NCBI GenBank assembly: GCA_035387745.1
Contig: DAOOON010000030.1
Coordinates: forward strand, 1 to 7,678
From: an archaeon
GTDB lineage: Archaea; Iainarchaeota; Iainarchaeia; Iainarchaeales; CSSED10-239
DNA: 7,678 nucleotides
Direction: 5' to 3'
Shown here: positions 40-7,592 of the stretch, in pieces
Layout of the letters: the number at the start of each line of letters is the position of its first letter
Position numbering within the stretch: position 1 is the first letter of the stretch
The notes under the pieces: model-generated
Told to the model about the DNA's origin: nothing
What the model saw: only the letters and a program-made list of their open reading frames with translations
The model's database searches: none
Made by a program: the position numbers and the translations under genes

Positions 40-804
40 TTAAAGAAATAGTTTTTTAAAGCTAGATATGATTTCGCCACTTGCCTCTTTAAAACCCGGA
101 ACATTAAGAATCAACTGAGGTAATTCTGTTTCCCAGAGTTTTTCTCTGTCTTCTATTTCTGTAATAAATTCTTTTAAATTAAATTTTTGATTATAGAATG
201 CCAGTTTTTTATTTATTATATCCTTATCAATTTCTATTTTTTTTAATATTAAGAAATATAAGTCATAAACATCTCTCGCTTTTTTTCTAGTCATTATGGC
301 CCGCACTTTTTCTGCTAATATTTCTTTAATATCTAAGGTGTTGATATAAAATACAGGGAATTCGTTATAGATGTGATTTATTCTAGAAACTGCGCCATTA
401 GAGAGGTAGTCGTTTCTTCTAGAGAAATCAATAGTGTTTTTGCATCTGGTGTTGTTTGTATTTTTATATAATGGCCCGTAGAAATAAACTTGTGTGTCTT
501 GAAATTTATTGTCTTCTATTTTATAGTCAATTACAATATCATAGTCTGCAAGAAACGTTTTTATTTTATTTAATGTTTCATCAATATTCAAATCTTTATC
601 AACTACATTAAAATCCAGATCTTCAGAAAATCTATCCAGTCCATAACAAAGCATTAGTGCTGTTCCTCCTTTAAACATTAATTTTTCAGGAAATAATTTA
701 GATATTGCAAAAAGTATTGCAATATGCAGGTAGTTTTTTTCAGTTTGCCCCAGATTGAAATTTATTTTTTTTTTATATTCTTTTAATTCATCAATATTGA
801 TCAT
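40..804 (-). CDS. abiEii: AbiEii/AbiGii-family nucleotidyltransferase toxin (type IV toxin-antitoxin, DUF1814/PF08843-like)
   Basis: The ORF is 40..819. It contains the family-typical block FKGGTALMLCYGLDRFSEDLDF (GGTAL ... R.SEDLDF nucleotidyltransferase motif). It lies directly downstream of, and overlaps, an AbiEi-like gene. I prefer the second ATG at 804 (MINIDELKEY...) because GAGG (reverse complement of 814-817) sits 9 nt upstream of it. The ATG at 819 is itself part of that GAGG context. Confidence 0.85.
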   Translation of the reverse strand: MINIDELKEYKKKINFNLGQTEKNYLHIAILFAISKLFPEKLMFKGGTALMLCYGLDRFSEDLDFNVVDKDLNIDETLNKIKTFLADYDIVIDYKIEDNKFQDTQVYFYGPLYKNTNNTRCKNTIDFSRRNDYLSNGAVSRINHIYNEFPVFYINTLDIKEILAEKVRAIMTRKKARDVYDLYFLILKKIEIDKDIINKKLAFYNQKFNLKEFITEIEDREKLWETELPQLILNVPGFKEASGEIISSFKKLFL

Positions 805-1486
805 AATCAAGAACCTCATTTATATTTATTTTCCATTTTGCGTTGTTGATTTTTGATTTTTTAAGTTTTCTGTTTAATAGGATGTATTTTTTAGTGTTTT
901 TAATTTTTGATAGATATTCTTCATAGATGTCTATTCCCTTAATTTCTAGTAGATACCCTGTTCTTCTTATTAAATCAAGATTATTTATTCTATTTAAATA
1001 ATTAATTAGTTTATCTTTGTCTAGATTGTCTTTTAATAATTTATGTAATTCAGATATACTAACATATTTTTGATAGATTAAACAATCTAATAGTAGTTTT
1101 TCTTTCTCTGCAATAAATATTTCAAAATCGCCATATCTTATTTTTTTATATCCAAAAAAATTTCTTTTATTTATTTTAATAAACTTTATTTGCCTTAGTT
1201 CTTTTTTTTGTTTAGTTATAGCAACTGTTGCTTTTAACGGTATTTGAGTAGTATAGCCATAAAAATTAAGCGCAGATAAAAAAGAAAGATAAGATGGATT
1301 AATAATTTGTGTTGCATAAATTAATGGATCCTCGTGCAGCGTATATTTCCCTTTTTCTATAGTTTTTATTTTTGTAATGTGTCTGCAGATATATACTTCT
1401 GGATATTTAATCCCATAGTGTAATTTTAGATCTTTGTTTCTAAACAAAGGCAGTTTAGTGAGTTTTGATAAATCCATAATAAACAT
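791..1486 (-). CDS. abiEi: AbiEi-family antitoxin / wHTH transcriptional regulator
   Basis: This 231-aa ORF sits upstream of, and overlaps, the AbiEii gene (14 nt overlap with start 804, 29 nt with start 819). It has an N-terminal IEKGKY-type wHTH signature. PSYLSFLSALNFYGYTTQIP and EKEKLLLDCL resemble the conserved AbiEi blocks (P.Y.S..SAL..yG...Q.P; EkalLD). The start could be ATG 1486 or ATG 1477 (MDLSKL...). No SD is present, so the transcript is probably leaderless. Confidence 0.75.
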   Translation of the reverse strand: MFIMDLSKLTKLPLFRNKDLKLHYGIKYPEVYICRHITKIKTIEKGKYTLHEDPLIYATQIINPSYLSFLSALNFYGYTTQIPLKATVAITKQKKELRQIKFIKINKRNFFGYKKIRYGDFEIFIAEKEKLLLDCLIYQKYVSISELHKLLKDNLDKDKLINYLNRINNLDLIRRTGYLLEIKGIDIYEEYLSKIKNTKKYILLNRKLKKSKINNAKWKININEVLDYDQY

Positions 1487-2148: not shown

Positions 2149-2232
2149 ATGAAGAATATAAATGTAAAGAAAGTAGTTGCTGGCGCAGCAGCACTTGCAT
2201 TAGGTGTAGGTGTTCTTGGCGTAGCAATAGCT
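2149..2232 (+). other. Signal peptide (residues 1-28), predicted cleavage after AIA
   Basis: MKNINVKK forms a basic n-region. VVAGAAALALGVGVLGVAIA forms a hydrophobic h-region ending in an A-x-A motif, followed by GNNNGT. Confidence 0.6.
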
Positions 2233-4404
2233 GGTAACAACAATGGTACAGCATTTGGTTCTGTTGCAAAGACAGATGTTTACAACACAGCAGACATGTC
2301 ACCAAAAGTAACCTTAGTTACCGGAACAGTCGGAGACGATGATGCATGGGCACAAAACATTGCAAACGCAATTGCAAGTAATGCAAAGAGAGAGAACCCA
2401 CTATATGCTTCATGGGTACCATCCGATGGCGAAACAACCACAACAACCGGCGAAGGTAAAGAATTCAAAAAGAACGAAATAGGAGACGATTTTGCGGATT
2501 TAAAACTAGATTATAAAGACTATCCTGCGCTTGGAGACTATAAAGTAAAAGTAAATAATACAAAATTTGGAACAACAGAGATAAAAGTAAAAGATTTCTT
2601 ACTTGTTTCAGGTAATGTTGCTTTTGATCCAGACGAAGATGTAAAAGACTTAACAACAACAATAGAGTCCCAACAATTAAAATACCAGGTAACATTTACA
2701 CCAGGAATAAAAGACGGTGCAGATGATACAGGAAGTCCAGATTTCAAATTCGAGATTATGGGTAAAGAATATACACTAGAAGAATGGGACGGTACATCAA
2801 AAGAATTAACTCTTGTTCAAAATAAGGCAACCACACCATATAGTGAAGGAGATTCTTTTACAGCAGATAATTACACAATAGAAGTAGTAAACATCCTTGA
2901 TTCTGGGGCAGAGAATGAATACGAAGTAGAATTAAGATTAAAGGATGCTTCAGGCACAGTCAAATCTACAGACATATTTGTAGCAGGAGACGAAATATTT
3001 AGTGACTATCTTGATGTAACTGTAGAAATTTCAAAAGTATATTCTAACAGAGTTGCGGTGGTCGCAGGAACTAGTGCAAAATTAACTCTTAAAGACGGAG
3101 ATTTAATTGAGGATTTCCCAGAATCTGAAGATGAGTTATGGGCAGTAGATATGGAGGTTGTTGATAAAGCATTAATAAGCATAACAATCTATAATGATGA
3201 CCCAGATGTAGAATGGAAAAACGAAAACGCTCTAAAAATCGGAGATTCAGCATCATATCCATTTGACTTTGCAAAAGTTAAGTTTGAAGGTCTTACAGAA
3301 GAGGATTCAAAAGCAGTAACTGTTGAAGATGGATATATAAATTATACAGATGCAGATGACGAAGATCACGAAATATTCTTTTACGACTATGCTTCCTGGA
3401 GTAACGGTGTAGAAAGATATACCACAAGAAAAACAATTGATGACAAGAAACTGTACTTTGATTTCAATACAACTTCTGGTAAATTTACTATACAAGAAAC
3501 AAACAGCGACGGGGAATATCTAGATCACGACGGAACTTGGGGTACATTACACGAATACGATATACCAGATAACAATACAATCGACTTTAATGTTGGATTA
3601 TGGAATAATGAAGAGGAACTAGTGACCTATACCATATATACCGATTCAAATACAAGCATTAAAAAAATCGCTGTTGGCTTAAAAAAAGGAGCTACAGGAA
3701 CCATAAACGATTTAGACAAGGACCACACTTGGGAAATTGGTGACATATATGACAGCGTAGATGTTGACAACCACAAAACCGGTATAATGATCGGTGATAA
3801 CGATGATGGCTTTGCAACAGCAGCACTAAAGTCTATGTTTGAATTTATCGTTTCAGATGATACAGAAGGGGCATTTACTGCACATATCGACGCATATACA
3901 GGCAATTTAGTAAATACCAGCAGTACAAAGTACAAAGCAGGTCTTGTTCAAGTTACTTCTGAAGACTTCTATGATTTAGATCAAGAAGAAACAGATGATT
4001 TAAGATGGGCATATACCGATTGGGGCACAAAGTACGAAGTTGATGGTGGTAAATTCACTGCAACAATACCAGAAGAGCAATTATATGCAAAAATCTTTAT
4101 CGGTGCAGGAACAGTAACAACAGGCGGTACAGAAGAGAACCCATATGATGAATACATTATGACTCCAGTAACCGTGTCAGATCTTCTAAAGAAAGACTCT
4201 ATGGCAGCAACCGGTACCTTAATCGTTGTCGGTGGACACCTTGCAAATACAGTAGCAGACGGTATAACAAATACCTTCCTTGCACAAACAGGAGATTACA
4301 TTGTGGGTAAATACTCAAACGGTAATATCTACGTTGCAGGTTGGACAAAGGCAGACACAGGTACAGCAGCAGGCGAATTAGTAACCACAATAAATGGTTG
4401 GTAA
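2149..4404 (+). CDS. Secreted S-layer-like surface (glyco)protein
   Basis: The ORF is 751 aa and has the highest G+C in the window. The N-terminus is a signal peptide. PKVTLVTGTVGDDDAWAQNIANAIAS resembles the N-terminal vvVG..a..D...A..IA block of Methanococcales-type S-layer proteins. LIVVGGHLANTVADGI ... NIYVAGWTKADTGTAAGELV resembles the C-terminal VGGp.AN ... VAG....T..AA..L block (PF05123/PF05124, TIGR01564-like; from memory, not searched). The protein is very acidic, has a TTTTT linker and 8 N-x-S/T sequons, and lacks a C-terminal TM anchor. Confidence 0.7.
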   Translation: MKNINVKKVVAGAAALALGVGVLGVAIAGNNNGTAFGSVAKTDVYNTADMSPKVTLVTGTVGDDDAWAQNIANAIASNAKRENPLYASWVPSDGETTTTTGEGKEFKKNEIGDDFADLKLDYKDYPALGDYKVKVNNTKFGTTEIKVKDFLLVSGNVAFDPDEDVKDLTTTIESQQLKYQVTFTPGIKDGADDTGSPDFKFEIMGKEYTLEEWDGTSKELTLVQNKATTPYSEGDSFTADNYTIEVVNILDSGAENEYEVELRLKDASGTVKSTDIFVAGDEIFSDYLDVTVEISKVYSNRVAVVAGTSAKLTLKDGDLIEDFPESEDELWAVDMEVVDKALISITIYNDDPDVEWKNENALKIGDSASYPFDFAKVKFEGLTEEDSKAVTVEDGYINYTDADDEDHEIFFYDYASWSNGVERYTTRKTIDDKKLYFDFNTTSGKFTIQETNSDGEYLDHDGTWGTLHEYDIPDNNTIDFNVGLWNNEEELVTYTIYTDSNTSIKKIAVGLKKGATGTINDLDKDHTWEIGDIYDSVDVDNHKTGIMIGDNDDGFATAALKSMFEFIVSDDTEGAFTAHIDAYTGNLVNTSSTKYKAGLVQVTSEDFYDLDQEETDDLRWAYTDWGTKYEVDGGKFTATIPEEQLYAKIFIGAGTVTTGGTEENPYDEYIMTPVTVSDLLKKDSMAATGTLIVVGGHLANTVADGITNTFLAQTGDYIVGKYSNGNIYVAGWTKADTGTAAGELVTTINGW

Positions 4405-4418
4405 ATAAGTCTAAAACC

Positions 4419-4465
4419 AAAATTGTAAGCTAATAACTTACAATTTTCTTTTCTTTTTCTTTTTG
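4419..4465 (+). terminator. Hairpin plus oligo-T terminator of the S-layer gene
   Basis: AAAATTGTAAG (4419-4429), loop CTAATAA, CTTACAATTTT (4437-4447). This 11-bp perfect stem starts 15 nt after the stop codon and is followed by CTTTTCTTTTTCTTTTT (to 4465). Confidence 0.65.
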
Positions 4466-4495: not shown

Positions 4496-4515
4496 TTTAA
4501 AACTCGCTATCAGAC
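4496..4515 (+). repeat. Boundary motif copy 1: TTTAAAACTCGCTATCAGAC
   Basis: The 13-nt core CTCGCTATCAGAC is at 4503-4515. The 20-mer matches 6008-6027 at 19 of 20 positions (C/T at core position 3). It lies 225 nt upstream of ATG 4728. Confidence 0.85.
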
Positions 4516-4548
4516 CATAATCTTACAATCACACAATGCATCATTGTA

Positions 4549-4589
4549 AATGACACAAAATAGAAAAATGTGTCATTACAAATGACACA
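4549..4589. repeat. Three AATGACACA half-sites (direct, inverted, direct)
   Basis: AATGACACA at 4549-4557, its exact complement TGTGTCATT at 4569-4577, and AATGACACA again at 4581-4589. The last two form a perfect 9+9 palindrome with a 3-nt spacer. The larger direct repeats TCATTGTAAATGACACA (4541-4557) and TCATTACAAATGACACA (4573-4589) differ at 2 positions. Confidence 0.7.
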
Positions 4590-4610
4590 TCTAAAAGATG
4601 TTTAAATATC
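4590..4610 (+). promoter_or_regulatory. Conserved distal TATA-like block (TCTAAAAGATGTTTAAATATC)
   Basis: This block is collinear with TCTAGAAAAATGTTCTTTAATATC at 6142-6165 and loosely with 1964-1990 upstream of the S-layer gene. In both ATPase spacers it is preceded by an identical ATTACAAATG (4575-4584 and 6119-6128). It could be a second promoter giving a leader of about 95 nt. Confidence 0.3.
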
Positions 4611-4638
4611 ATAATCTAAACAACACCGCGCGCATGTG

Positions 4639-4692
4639 TTCGTTACTATCGAAAGCTTTGCTTAGTAATCATTCGTTACTATCGAAAGCTTT
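4639..4692 (+). repeat. Two perfect 21-nt direct repeats TTCGTTACTATCGAAAGCTTT, period 33 nt
   Basis: The copies are at 4639-4659 and 4672-4692. Each contains the 8-bp palindrome AAAGCTTT. The second copy overlaps the proximal TATA-like box by 3 nt. Confidence 0.9.
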
Positions 4693-4699
4693 AAATATT
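4690..4699 (+). promoter_or_regulatory. Proximal TATA-like box (TTTAAATATT) of ATPase-1
   Basis: It starts 38 nt before ATG 4728 (32 nt before TTG 4722). No SD is present, which suggests a leaderless or very short-leader mRNA. Confidence 0.5.
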
Positions 4700-4727
4700 A
4701 TTTCAACCACTATATTTATGATTGTGT

Positions 4728-5987
4728 ATGATAACAAAAGATGAATTAAAAAAAGTAATTTTAGATCAAAGAGAAAGTTTTGAGAAATCAGAAAACATTA
4801 TACAAAGACAAGTAGATTTAAAATCTTATATAAATTATGATTCGATTGTGGTAATAAGTGGGGTAAGAAGGTGTGGTAAATCTACATTATTAAAAATAAT
4901 TAAAACTAAAATAAATCCAAAAGATTACCTTTATTGTGATTTTTCAGACGAAAGATTAAATAATTTAACAATTGCGGATTTACAACTAATATATGAAATA
5001 TTTTTAGAAAAATACGAATCTGGAAAAAAATATTTTTTTTTTGATGAAATACAATATGTAAACGGGTGGGAAAAATTCGTAAATAGATTATACGAAAAAG
5101 AAGAGGCAAAAATATTTGTAACTGGATCAAACAGCTCTTTACTTAGTTCAGAAATATCGTCTGTTTTAACAGGAAGAAACAAAGTAATAGAGCTTTACCC
5201 ATTTTCTTTTAAAGAATACATTACTGCAAAGAAAGAAACAATAGATATAAACAACTTATCAACAAAAGAAGGCATTAAATTAAATAAATATTTTGATGAT
5301 TATTTTAATATAGGTGGATTTCCGCATGTTATAAATACAAATGATGTTCAGATATTAAAAGAATATTACACAAATATAATATATAAAGACATAATTGTTA
5401 GAAAAAAGATAAGGCAAGTAAAAGAAATAAAAGAAATAATCTCATTTTTATTAAATAACATAGGCCAGATAATATCATATAAAAAGATAATTGCTAATTC
5501 AGAAATAAAAAGCACAAGCACAATAAAGAATTTCATAGATTATCTTAATGAAGCATATATTTTATTTACATTATCCAAATATGACAAATCTATCAGAAAA
5601 CAAATACAAAATCCAAAAAAATCATATTTTATAGATATGGGGATGGTAAGAAAAATAAGTGTTAATTTTTCAGAAAATAATGGCTGGTATTTAGAAAACG
5701 TTGTATTTTTAGAATTATTAAGAAGAAATAAAGAAATTTATTATCATAAAAAAGAAAAAGAATGTGATTTTGTAGTAAAGGAAGGCACACAAATTAAAGA
5801 AGCCATACAAGTATCTTATGAAATGAATCAAAAAACAGAAACAAGAGAGATTAAAGGATTAATTAATGCAATAAAAACCTATAATCTTAAAGAAGGAATA
5901 ATTATAACGAGAGACCAAGAAGAAACGAGAATAGTAGAAGGATATAAAATAAAAATAATTCCAATAGCTAAATGGTTATTAGAGTAA
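4728..5987 (+). CDS. AAA+ ATPase, AAA_14 + DUF4143 architecture (COG1373-type 'archaeal ATPase'), paralogue 1
   Basis: Walker A is GVRRCGKST and Walker B is YFFFDEIQ. TGSNSSLL, LTGR and PFSFKEY blocks are present. A central wHTH-like segment reads SYKKIIANSEIKSTSTIKNFIDYLNEAYILF. The C-terminal nuclease-fold-like segment reads LENVVFLEL ... ECDFVV ... AIQVSYEM ... TREIKGL. The tracked ORF begins at TTG 4722; I prefer ATG 4728 (MITKDEL). Confidence 0.85.
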   Translation: MITKDELKKVILDQRESFEKSENIIQRQVDLKSYINYDSIVVISGVRRCGKSTLLKIIKTKINPKDYLYCDFSDERLNNLTIADLQLIYEIFLEKYESGKKYFFFDEIQYVNGWEKFVNRLYEKEEAKIFVTGSNSSLLSSEISSVLTGRNKVIELYPFSFKEYITAKKETIDINNLSTKEGIKLNKYFDDYFNIGGFPHVINTNDVQILKEYYTNIIYKDIIVRKKIRQVKEIKEIISFLLNNIGQIISYKKIIANSEIKSTSTIKNFIDYLNEAYILFTLSKYDKSIRKQIQNPKKSYFIDMGMVRKISVNFSENNGWYLENVVFLELLRRNKEIYYHKKEKECDFVVKEGTQIKEAIQVSYEMNQKTETREIKGLINAIKTYNLKEGIIITRDQEETRIVEGYKIKIIPIAKWLLE

Positions 5988-6005
5988 TTTCTTTTCTTTT
6001 TATTT
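5988..6005 (+). terminator. Oligo-T tract after ATPase-1 (TTTCTTTTCTTTTTATTT)
   Basis: It starts immediately after the TAA stop at 5985-5987 and has no hairpin. It is homologous to the T-tract at 4446-4465. Archaeal termination at oligo-T is established knowledge. Confidence 0.4.
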
Positions 6006-6007
6006 AG

Positions 6008-6027
6008 TTTAAAACTTGCTATCAGAC
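6008..6027 (+). repeat. Boundary motif copy 2: TTTAAAACTTGCTATCAGAC
   Basis: The core CTTGCTATCAGAC is at 6015-6027, 263 nt upstream of ATG 6278. Confidence 0.85.
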
Positions 6028-6189
6028 TAAATAAATGTGCTATTTTTGTCAATTGTTATTGTTCATATGATTGACCAAAAAAGACGTTTTTTGTTCAGCC
6101 AACTGACCATAATTTTTTATTACAAATGCGGCTCATTTATATCTAGAAAAATGTTCTTTAATATCGAATACTTTTGTCTTTAAAGAAAA

Positions 6190-6247
6190 AAGTGCGTGCG
6201 TTTCTCCACCCACTTTCGTTTTTAAGTGCGTGCGTTTTACCACTCGC
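6190..6247 (+). repeat. Two direct repeats headed by AAGTGCGTGCGTTT, period 34 nt
   Basis: The perfect 14-mers are at 6190-6203 and 6224-6237. The tails have diverged (CTCCACCCACTTTCG versus TACCACTCGCTTT) and share CCAC. These are G+C-rich islets in AT-rich DNA. The second copy ends where the TATA-like box begins. Confidence 0.85.
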
Positions 6248-6256
6248 TTTTTAAAT
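6248..6256 (+). promoter_or_regulatory. Proximal TATA-like box (TTTTTAAAT) of ATPase-2
   Basis: The TTTAAAT core starts 28 nt before ATG 6278. No SD is present, which fits a leaderless transcript. Confidence 0.5.
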
Positions 6257-6277
6257 GTTGTTATACATTAATTATTT

Positions 6278-7528
6278 ATGTATTCAAAAGAACAATTAAA
6301 AGAAATAATTGTTTCTCAAAAAGAAGCGATTGATTCTCAAGATATAGGACTAATAAGAACAGATTATTTAAAATTATTAAAAGAATCAATTCATCCAAAA
6401 ATAGTCACAATATTAAAGGGCCCAAGAAGAGTAGGAAAATCAACAATAGTTTTACAATTTATAAAAGAGATAAATAACAACTATTATTATTTTGATTTTG
6501 ATGATGAGAGAATAGCAAATTTTAAAACAGGGGATTTTGAAACACTAATGCTGGCTTTTCAAGAGCTATACCAAGATAAAGATTATTTGTTATTTGATGA
6601 AATTCAAAATATAGATTCTTGGGAATTATTTATAAATAGGCAATTAAAACAAAATAAAAAAATAATAATAACTGGCTCAAACTCAAAATTATTAAGTGCT
6701 GATTTAGGCACACATCTAACTGGCAGGCACATAGACATAGAAATATTCCCTTTTTCTTTTAAAGAATACCTTTATGCGAAAGATTTTAAAACTAAACAAG
6801 CATACACTATAAAGGAAAAAGCAGAACTTGAAAAATTATTTAAAGATTATCAAAAAACCGGAGGTTTCCCACAAGTTGTATTTTTTTATGACTATAGGAT
6901 ATTACAAGAACTATACAGAGACATAATTGAAAAAGACACAAAAGATCTAAAAAGTAATCAAAAAATAAAAGACGTTTCCGATTATTTATTATTTAATATT
7001 TCTACATTAGTTTCTTTAAGAAGCATACAGAAAAACTTTGGTTTAAAAAACACAAACGAAGCAAAAGCTATAATAAAAAGACTAGAAGCAACATATCTTT
7101 TCCAATTTATAGAAATTTATTCAAATTCTTATAAGGAAAGAAAAGCAAACCCCATGAAATGTTATTCAATAGATGTTGGTTTAGTAAACAATATTTCAAC
7201 AAAACTAGTAGAGGATAGGGGGCAGCAATTTGAAAATTTAGTATATTTAAAGCTAAGGAAAGAAAATGCACAAATATATTATTATAAAAAGAAAGGGGAA
7301 ACAGATTTTATAGTAATAGATAATAAAAAACCAATACTTGTAGCACAAGCTTGTAGTAATCTAGCAGACAATAAAACCAAAGAAAGAGAAGTAAGTTCTT
7401 TATTAGAATGTATGGATCAATTAAATATTAAAGTCGGGATAATAATAAACAAAGATCTAGAAAAAGAAGAAACAATTGATGGCAAAAGAATAAAGTTTAT
7501 ACCTATAATTAATTGGTTATTAGAATAA
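6278..7528 (+). CDS. AAA+ ATPase, AAA_14 + DUF4143 architecture (COG1373-type), paralogue 2
   Basis: Walker A is GPRRVGKST and Walker B is YLLFDEIQ. TGSNSKLL, LTGR, PFSFKEY and GGFPQV blocks are present, followed by FENLVYLKL ... ETDFIV ... KEREVSSL. It shares its C-terminal ending with paralogue 1 (IPIINWLLE versus IPIAKWLLE). Outside these blocks the two proteins are clearly diverged. Confidence 0.85.
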   Translation: MYSKEQLKEIIVSQKEAIDSQDIGLIRTDYLKLLKESIHPKIVTILKGPRRVGKSTIVLQFIKEINNNYYYFDFDDERIANFKTGDFETLMLAFQELYQDKDYLLFDEIQNIDSWELFINRQLKQNKKIIITGSNSKLLSADLGTHLTGRHIDIEIFPFSFKEYLYAKDFKTKQAYTIKEKAELEKLFKDYQKTGGFPQVVFFYDYRILQELYRDIIEKDTKDLKSNQKIKDVSDYLLFNISTLVSLRSIQKNFGLKNTNEAKAIIKRLEATYLFQFIEIYSNSYKERKANPMKCYSIDVGLVNNISTKLVEDRGQQFENLVYLKLRKENAQIYYYKKKGETDFIVIDNKKPILVAQACSNLADNKTKEREVSSLLECMDQLNIKVGIIINKDLEKEETIDGKRIKFIPIINWLLE

Positions 7529-7537
7529 CTACTTGGT

Positions 7538-7561
7538 TAATAACTTACAATTTCTTTTTTT
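7538..7561 (+). repeat. 3'-flank block shared with the S-layer terminator, plus oligo-T tract
   Basis: TAATAACTTACAATTT (7538-7553) is identical to 4431-4446, which is the loop and right arm of the S-layer terminator hairpin. It is followed by CTTTTTTTT. The left arm of the hairpin is absent here. Confidence 0.7.
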
Positions 7562-7579: not shown

Positions 7580-7592
7580 CTTGCTATCAGAC
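7580..7592 (+). repeat. Boundary motif copy 3: CTTGCTATCAGAC
   Basis: It is an exact 13-mer match to 6015-6027 and lies 52 nt after the ATPase-2 stop. If the spacing rule holds, the next gene should start about 225-263 nt downstream, beyond the window end. Confidence 0.8.

Follow-up and report, generated by a model that had tools for sequence, protein, structure and literature searches.

The window, by which we mean the whole 7,678-nt stretch of archaeal DNA analyzed here, carries two tandem ATPase genes, the gene of a 751-aa protein, and a pair of AbiE genes on the opposite strand. These genes, together with two parts of ATPase-1, are as follows.

40-819, minus strand: AbiEii toxin gene
791-1486, minus strand: AbiEi antitoxin gene, overlapping the AbiEii gene by 29 nt; type IV toxin-antitoxin, abortive infection
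2149-4404, plus strand: gene of a 751-aa protein with an N-terminal hydrophobic segment, Thr/Asp/Gly-rich
4728-5987, plus strand: ATPase-1 gene, 419 aa, AAA_14 plus DUF4143, PADLOC PDC-S01 (Pfam, PADLOC, alignment)
5418-5630, plus strand: predicted winged helix of ATPase-1, residues 231-301, with the presumed recognition helix at 263-275 (models, Foldseek)
5679-5909, plus strand: PD-(D/E)XK-like domain of ATPase-1, residues 318-394 (alignment, models, PMC3424549)
6278-7528, plus strand: ATPase-2 gene, 416 aa, tandem paralog, PDC-S01 match (Pfam, PADLOC, alignment)

AbiE genes also flank the ATPase arrays in L001, L005, and L127 of our locus collection, and the region therefore looks like a small defense island. 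The 751-aa protein matched nothing in Pfam, NCBIfam, or PHROG and is presumably a secreted or surface-layer protein; its gene has a GC content of 35 to 39%, against 23 to 26% in the ATPase genes. Directly past its stop codon and before a T-run lies a perfect hairpin, AAAATTGTAAG-CTAATAA-CTTACAATTTT (4413-4447), one half of which, TAATAACTTACAATTT, is found again at 7539-7554, after ATPase-2.

By domain content and profile match, both ATPases belong to the PDC-S01 family (AAA_14-DUF4143, COG1373). The Pfam matches are AAA_14 (1.9e-39) and DUF4143 (8.6e-21) for ATPase-1 and AAA_14 (1.3e-36) and DUF4143 (3.7e-16) for ATPase-2, and the PADLOC profile PDLC04787 covers nearly the full length of each (E = 1.3e-115 and 2.5e-95, respectively). 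The two proteins are 39% identical. ATPase-1 starts at the ATG at 4728, which aligns with the N termini of all homologs (MITKDELKK), and not at the TTG at 4722. Its Walker A (GVRRCGKST) and Walker B (FFFDE) motifs include residues that are invariant in the family alignment (G45, G50, K51, and S52 in the former and D106 and E107 in the latter), as are E323, E345, D347, Q361, and E374 of the PD-(D/E)XK-like domain. The PADLOC entry PDC-S01 denotes a candidate single-gene defense system in which an ATPase is fused to a PD-(D/E)XK domain. It is reported to be the fourth most common prokaryotic defense candidate, with ~39,000 copies in one survey, and has crossed between bacteria and archaea several times; most PDC candidates still await validation (PMC12988326). 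DUF4143 has been placed in the PD-(D/E)XK superfamily as a domain of unknown function (PMC3424549), and the literature on DUF4143, COG1373, PF13173/PF13635, and PDC-S01 yielded catalog mentions only, with no described mechanism. A PDB sequence search with the ATPase returned just weak P-loop matches and no related entry, and searches of PHROGs and NCBIfam gave nothing useful.

An AlphaFold model of ATPase-1, made from a 92-sequence alignment (mean pLDDT 91), is composed of an AAA+ core, a helical lid, a winged helix, and an alpha-beta-beta-beta-alpha-beta domain. The C-terminal half was also modeled alone (pLDDT 91). The winged helix comprises helices 231-243, 251-256, and 263-275 and strands 279-282 and 297-301. 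The fold neighbors of the whole model, RuvB, Orc1/Cdc6, RFC, and Avs, are AAA+ proteins with a winged helix after the lid. Within the C-terminal half, Foldseek paired the winged helix with the MarR-type regulators MepR, ZitR, BpsR, and ST1710 at modest E values (0.016 to 0.1, probability ~0.9), which is a resemblance in fold and not membership, as ATPase-1 has no Pfam match to MarR. The nuclease-like part of the same half matched McrC (6hz4_M/N) and Can2. The wHTH-like segment that the earlier note had read in the ATPase is thus recovered in the models, as a winged helix behind the AAA+ lid with MarR-type fold neighbors.

The promoter region of ATPase-1 holds a pair of direct repeats, which we call type-A sites.

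4639-4659, plus strand: distal type-A copy, TTCGTTACTATCGAAAGCTTT, made up of a dyad core, TTCGTTACTATCGAA (4639-4653), and the flank AGCTTT (sequence, repeat finder, shuffles, ortholog conservation)
4672-4692, plus strand: proximal type-A copy, TTCGTTACTATCGAAAGCTTT, with its dyad core at 4672-4686 (sequence, repeat finder); its 3' flank occupies the BRE position and continues into the TATA box (invariant columns of the promoter alignment)
4690-4699, plus strand: putative TATA box of ATPase-1, TTTAAATATT (sequence and conservation only)

Direct reading and the repeat finder agree that the two copies are identical at 21/21 positions, with a period of 33 nt from start to start and a 12-nt spacer between them, as the earlier note had described; its placement of the second copy as running into TTTAAATATT, 38 nt before the ATG (4690 to 4728), is likewise correct. 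The proximal dyad stops 3 nt short of TTTAAATA. The repeat score of the 150 nt upstream of ATPase-1 has a z value of 14.4 and was reached by none of 100 dinucleotide-preserving shuffles. Beyond each 21-mer, the following 12 nt agree at just 5/12 positions, and this sharp end to the identity indicates that the pair is not a decaying tandem duplication. A neutral and recent duplication, a transcribed RNA structure, or part of a small open reading frame might each account for two perfectly identical copies, and a 48-aa ORF (4598-4744) does span both. We regard this group of explanations as hardly credible, given the abrupt stop of identity at 21 nt and the conservation of the pair across 58 to 86% protein identity. 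As to the individual candidates, Rfam gave no match at E <= 1 over the whole window, the predicted fold of 4630-4730 had a z value of -1.3, and the small ORF contains a stop codon in one orthologous locus (L010) and lacks a start codon in another (L005). A CRISPR array was considered as well and rejected; such arrays have at least three repeats of 23 to 50 nt, spacers of similar length, and cas genes, whereas here there are two 21-nt copies with a 12-nt spacer at a promoter.

Homologs of ATPase-1 at 58 to 86% protein identity were located in metagenome assemblies. The type-A set consists of the window and loci L002, L005, L010, L011-13, and L127, plus the partial locus L041. Their upstream regions read as follows (percentages are protein identity to ATPase-1).

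L005 (79%): AAGTGTTCGATACTAACGAAAGCTTT twice, perfect, period 33, then TTTAAATATT
L010 (76%): AAGTGTTCGATACTAACGAAAGCTTT twice, perfect, period 33, then TATA-like TTTTTAATATG
L011-13 (61%): AATCGTTCGATACCAxCGAACxxTTT twice, period 33, then TTTAAAAACC
L127, gene 7417 (73%): GTTCTTTACTATCGAACACTTT twice, period 33, then TTTATAAATC
L002 (84%): good proximal and degenerate distal copy, period 33, then TTTAAATATT
L041 (partial, 72%): proximal copy only, no period, then TTTATAAAG

The earlier note had named absence of the repeats from orthologous promoters, in advance, as grounds for giving up its proposal; the repeats are present there, and neither their period of 33 nt nor their distance to the TATA box has changed. 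When nine promoters were aligned, conservation was limited to the pair of sites, the TATA box, and the region around the start, with none 5' of the distal site. Wherever a type-A promoter has two copies, the period is 33, and the distance from dyad to TATA box is constant. The invariant columns of the proximal copy are TTC..T..A..CGAA...TTT, and by this alignment the conserved core is a 15-bp dyad, TTCG-N7-CGAA, and not AAAGCTTT. The latter, which the earlier note had singled out as the embedded palindrome, does occur in both copies (4652-4659 and 4685-4692), but it marks where the site meets the BRE/TATA region, and it becomes ACAGTTT, ACACTTT, or AAACTTT in orthologs. The two copies of a promoter vary in step, both having GTTACTAT in the window and both GATACTAA in L005 and L010. 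Two features of this set count against autoregulation of the gene by its own product: L041 has the proximal copy alone, and the two copies also share the 3' flank of the repeat unit (AGCTTT in the window), an asymmetry for which a simple dimer on a palindrome would have no need.

ATPase-2 has a pair of its own, of a different sequence (type B).

6190-6216, plus strand: distal type-B site, AAGTGCGTGCGTTTCTCCACCCACTTT (repeat finder, shuffles, 77%-identical orthologs)
6224-6250, plus strand: proximal type-B site (repeat finder, ortholog conservation)

The type-B dyad is AGTGCGTG-N8-CACCCACT, and the proximal site continues into TTTAAATGTT (6250-6259), 28 nt 5' of the ATPase-2 ATG at 6278. Orthologs of ATPase-2 (77% identical) in L127 and L129 have a recognizably similar type-B pair. 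Two further site types were found at other family genes, namely type C (TGTGTCATT-N3-AATGAC, period 33; L129 gene 2201-3463) and type D (GTTC-N8-GA(A/C)C, period 33; L129 gene 3631 and L002 gene 4956, whose products are 63% identical to each other). Type A was seen in six loci, type B in three, and type D in two, plus one orphan. In all promoters of types A, B, C, and D, the proximal dyad likewise adjoins what sequence and conservation indicate is the TATA box. The view that the pair is peculiar to ATPase-1 must therefore be given up, as the design is family-wide and what is private is the sequence of the site.

The ATPase genes occur in shuffled order, A-B in the window, B-A in L127, B-C-D in L129, and A-E-D-F in L002 (E and F being two further ATPase types), and in L005 a type-A gene stands alone behind AbiEi and AbiEii genes. 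In every locus compared, the site type stays with the ATPase type despite these changes of order and neighbors, as autoregulation would predict. The sites are conserved in orthologous promoters and divergent between paralogs, and the predicted recognition helices differ as well (KSTSTIKN in type A versus KNTNEAKA in type B). Operator similarity correlated with protein similarity (rho 0.33). Once the rest of the protein was controlled for, the covariation of operator and winged helix that the earlier note had proposed to look for was slight and not significant (partial Mantel r = 0.08, p = 0.11, with 36 genes and a crude site alignment), which leaves some weight to another possibility, that the sites are operators for a different, trans-encoded host transcription factor. 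Neighboring paralogs in one genome carry unrelated sites, which makes such a factor unlikely; moreover, the site moves with the gene into different neighborhoods and into both domains of life, and the loci have no gene in common other than the ATPase. We consider a host factor quite improbable. That the ATPase is the sole protein common to the loci and that its type-specific site travels with the gene point instead to the ATPase binding its own promoter, presumably through the winged helix.

Site pairs also occur in the window without a gene.

4537-4557 and 4569-4589, plus strand: orphan type-C pair, TGCATCATTGTAAATGACACA and the perfect 9+3+9 palindrome TGTGTCATTACAAATGACACA, period 32 (alignment with a type-C promoter)
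6059-6077 and 6091-6109, plus strand: orphan type-D pair, TTGTTCATATGATTGACCA and TTGTTCAGCCAACTGACCA, period 32 (alignment with type-D promoters)
6154-6174, plus strand: degenerate single type-A site, TTCTTTAATATCGAATACTTT, upstream of the type-B pair (repeat finder)

The orphan type-C pair aligns with the promoter of L129 gene 2201-3463 and is followed by CATCTAAAAG and then by a second TATA-like sequence, GTTTAAATATCA, at 4601-4612; the window has no type-C gene. The orphan type-D pair lacks a TATA box and has no type-D gene behind it. On the basis of these alignments we read both pairs as probable relics of lost cassettes. The degenerate site at 6154-6174 agrees with the repeat of the window at 17/21 positions and, at 19/21, with the proximal site found in an orthologous promoter; chance would give 0.01 matches per window. 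The earlier note's claim that the window has nothing else resembling the repeat therefore does not hold. It looks like the relic of a type-A promoter, and with the type-D orphan, likewise upstream of the ATPase-2 pair, it suggests that the spacer at 5987-6278 is a patchwork of promoter relics. A scan for bacterial-type terminators had a single match, the type-C palindrome on the minus strand; bacterial promoter and terminator scans are uninformative for an archaeon.

The junctions behind the genes are repetitive as well. A module consisting of a T-run (TTTCTTTTCTTTTT...) and then CT(T/C)GCTATCAGAC follows the 751-aa gene, ATPase-1, and ATPase-2 (4503-4515, 6015-6027, and 7580-7592) and recurs in L001 (17162-17174), a locus with five matches against 0.47 expected. 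Either a terminator or a recombination junction might fit this module. We rejected the T-run plus CTTGCTATCAGAC as a cassette boundary, since L001 has a weaker copy behind an unrelated 859-aa gene; the motif may be nothing more than a terminator. In L002, ~200-nt repeats of the 3' coding end of a large upstream gene (1240-1560, 2912-3240, 4602-4900, and 6162-6500) are placed behind every one of three tandem ATPase genes; they contain frameshifting indels and carry along a hairpin, a T-run, and CTTGCTATATGAC. It looks as if cassettes there were gained and lost by recombination between these repeats, with no integrase seen.

Shuffled tandem arrays with repeated junction sequences, orphan pairs without genes, and the presence of Orc1/Cdc6 among the fold neighbors would all suit a reading of the repeats as iterons, origin recognition boxes, or recombination sites of a mobile gene cassette. 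This reading, of which the earlier note had offered the iteron form as its alternative, is very improbable in our judgment. Only two copies exist, the 12 nt between them contain no AT-rich unwinding region, and each tandem paralog, having a pair of its own, would require its own origin. The sites lie only 5' of the gene and at a fixed distance to the TATA or -7 box, the 21 kb surrounding the locus have no annotated integrase, Rep, or Cdc6_C domain, and the repeated junctions are of a different sequence (the T-run plus CTTGCTATCAGAC). Nor does the cumulative GC skew turn at 4650. Integron attC cassettes were likewise rejected, with no integrase in 21 kb, the pairs 5' of the gene, and the 3' T-run plus CTTGCTATCAGAC not palindromic.

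The design was surveyed in 80 reference-genome loci and 39 metagenome loci, in which family genes were found with a profile made from the family alignment. The 150 nt upstream of each gene were searched for the highest-scoring ungapped direct repeat (period 15 to 60), which was called significant if at most 1 of 100 shuffles reached its score; ORFs of at least 250 aa from the same loci served as controls. A significant repeat was present upstream of 39 of 94 non-redundant family genes (41%) and 7 of 151 controls (5%; Fisher p = 9e-13), and some of the control matches are family sites viewed from a divergent neighbor gene. The best period was 23, 32, or 33 at 60/94 family genes compared with 16/151 controls (Fisher p = 2e-18), and 35 of the 39 significant family repeats had a period of 23 or 31 to 34. 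Clustered at 60% identity, 27 of 66 protein clusters had such a pair. The two period classes, 23 and 31 to 34, are separated by ~10 bp, or one helical turn, as would be predicted if two bound units touch on the same face of the DNA. On the other side, the 59% of family genes without a significant repeat under this simple ungapped score count against autoregulation, as do the modest MarR-like fold matches of the winged helix and its slight covariation with the operator.

The repeat units are mostly dyads (e.g., TTCATTAGTAATGAA, TTTCTATTcacAATAGAAA, and TTCATTgccAATGAA), and pairs were found in archaea (Woesearchaeota, Methanosarcinales, Thermoplasmatota, and Methanoperedens) as well as bacteria (Bacteroidales, Patescibacteria, Chlamydiales, and Pedobacter). 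The same two-site design thus recurs across PDC-S01 in both domains. A case from a cultured organism is METHO_RS12315 of Methanomethylovorans hollandica, on plasmid pMETHO01, with GATTATAATC dyads at a period of 32. In archaea, the proximal copy usually adjoins a TATA-like box; in Bacteroidales, it adjoins a TAnnTTTG box and falls where the -33 element would be expected. Upstream of two genes (L113, from Methanoperedens, gene start 313, with a 32-nt unit and a period of 33; and L124, gene start 5418, with a 23-nt unit), the sequence past the second copy begins another copy, so that there are seemingly three in tandem. As a separate observation, the family is found on 243 plasmid records, of which Acinetobacter accounts for 174, and on just 18 phage records, mostly short unannotated fecal contigs; all of these members are annotated merely as "ATP-binding protein."

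Taken together, the promoter layout and its distribution make it probable that the 21-nt repeats are an operator pair through which ATPase-1 regulates its own promoter, probably by repression. The 15-bp dyad of each copy, TTCG-N7-CGAA, is a type of site that dimers of winged-helix domains bind, and the 33 bp from one dyad to the next, or about three helical turns, would place both on the same face of the DNA, so that two bound units could touch. Protein on the proximal dyad would cover the BRE position and hinder TFB and TBP, and ATPase-1 would thereby keep its own transcription low; ATPase-2 would do likewise through its own, different pair. We infer here that the sites are bound by the ATPase, that the two are occupied cooperatively, and that transcription is thereby repressed rather than activated. 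Repression is favored by the position of the proximal dyad, at the BRE or the -33 region, by the resemblance of the core promoter elements to consensus, and by the occurrence of the same layout in two domains that have different transcription machineries and between which the family crossed. Steric repression fits these observations better than activation does, since an activator would have to make contacts particular to a single transcription machinery. Of the repressor-operator geometry proposed in the earlier note, the position at the core promoter and the conservation in orthologs are supported, and binding and the sign of regulation are proposed.

Alternatively, sites bound by the ATPase could form an activating or assembly platform, in which two dimers on dyads three turns apart would seed an AAA+ oligomer in the manner of NtrC at its enhancer, and this oligomer would recruit TBP and TFB or take the protein from a resting to an active state and back. 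In favor of this, both sites are upstream of the TATA box and clear of the start site, the AAA+, lid, and winged helix resemble those of RuvB and Orc1, the phase of the spacing is strict (23 or 33), and the direct-repeat character reaches beyond the dyad. The archaeal activator Ptr2 has two sites just upstream of the TATA box, and a site upstream of and adjoining the TATA box also fits activators of this kind, which counts against a firm reading as repression. In other members, however, the sites flank the TATA box or the second lies over the start (L020 and L027), the proximal site of Bacteroidales sits at the expected -33 element, the core promoter elements are near consensus, and the design is identical in both domains though their transcription machineries differ. 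We therefore hold a platform to be possible but unlikely and prefer repression by the ATPase.

Autorepression of this kind has partial counterparts in known systems. The winged-helix antitoxin AbiEi represses the abiE promoter by cooperative binding to a repeat pair (PMC7319586, PMC3985639). The likeness lies in a defense-associated winged-helix protein with a repeat pair within its own promoter, and AbiE genes are neighbors of the ATPases here (40-1486). AbiEi, though, is a small two-domain antitoxin in a two-gene operon, whereas the presumed binder in our case is the effector itself, an AAA+ ATPase with a nuclease-like domain, in a single-gene unit; and binding by AbiEi is demonstrated, while that of ATPase-1 is proposed. 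In restriction-modification systems, the C proteins, which are small HTH proteins in their own right, both activate and repress from paired C-box operators. They share with the ATPases an autoregulatory module that accompanies a mobile nuclease gene, with two adjacent dyads of system-specific sequence at the promoter, and differ in that the predicted DNA-binding domain is here fused to the ATPase-nuclease and there is no methylase partner. Archaeal regulators that act at the BRE/TATA region include the repressors Lrs14 and TrmB, NrpR with two operators, and the activator Ptr2 with its two upstream sites. They, too, have dyads at or near the BRE/TATA region and two sites separated by whole helical turns, but they are dedicated factors of the Lrp, TrmB, and NrpR families, to none of which ATPase-1 belongs, and the present design is also bacterial.

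Among ATPases, DnaA binds boxes in its own promoter, Orc1/Cdc6 binds ORB elements, NtrC binds two dyads ~32 bp apart, and MalT binds MalT boxes. Each is a P-loop ATPase with a winged helix or HTH that uses phased, repeated sites as a platform, and DnaA is autoregulatory. ATPase-1 is not a member of any of these families by sequence; it has a C-terminal PD-(D/E)XK domain and two sites only, at the core promoter. McrBC resembles it in combining an AAA+ motor with a PD-(D/E)XK nuclease, and McrBC function needs two DNA recognition sites. It differs in having two subunits, in using GTP, and in recognizing modified cytosines, and the similarity of ATPase-1 to it is by fold only (E = 5e-4 to 2e-3). 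We know of no autoregulatory sites in McrBC.

A wider reading, which we offer as speculative and rather unlikely, is that PDC-S01 proteins are sequence-specific DNA-binding ATPase-nucleases whose operators report their DNA specificity, the shuffled arrays of paralogs being a diversifying, restriction-like repertoire. The protein's own pair would hold it as a harmless repressor, and cognate dyads at other spacings on incoming DNA would license ATP-driven assembly and cleavage as in McrBC. A scan of IMG/VR for the type-A dyad plus flank (TTCGWTACNAWCGAANNNTTT) returned 27 single matches and no pairs, which resembles background and gives no evidence of viral targets.

Operator pairs as a kind of element are already known. 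What appears to be new in the searchable literature is a very abundant and uncharacterized defense candidate that carries a lineage-specific, phased pair of sites in its own promoter in both domains. If each PDC-S01 gene does carry in its promoter the site that its product binds, one could read from genome sequence which DNA thousands of such proteins recognize, the regulation of a very abundant defense candidate would become testable, and a single regulatory module would be working unchanged in bacterial and archaeal promoters.
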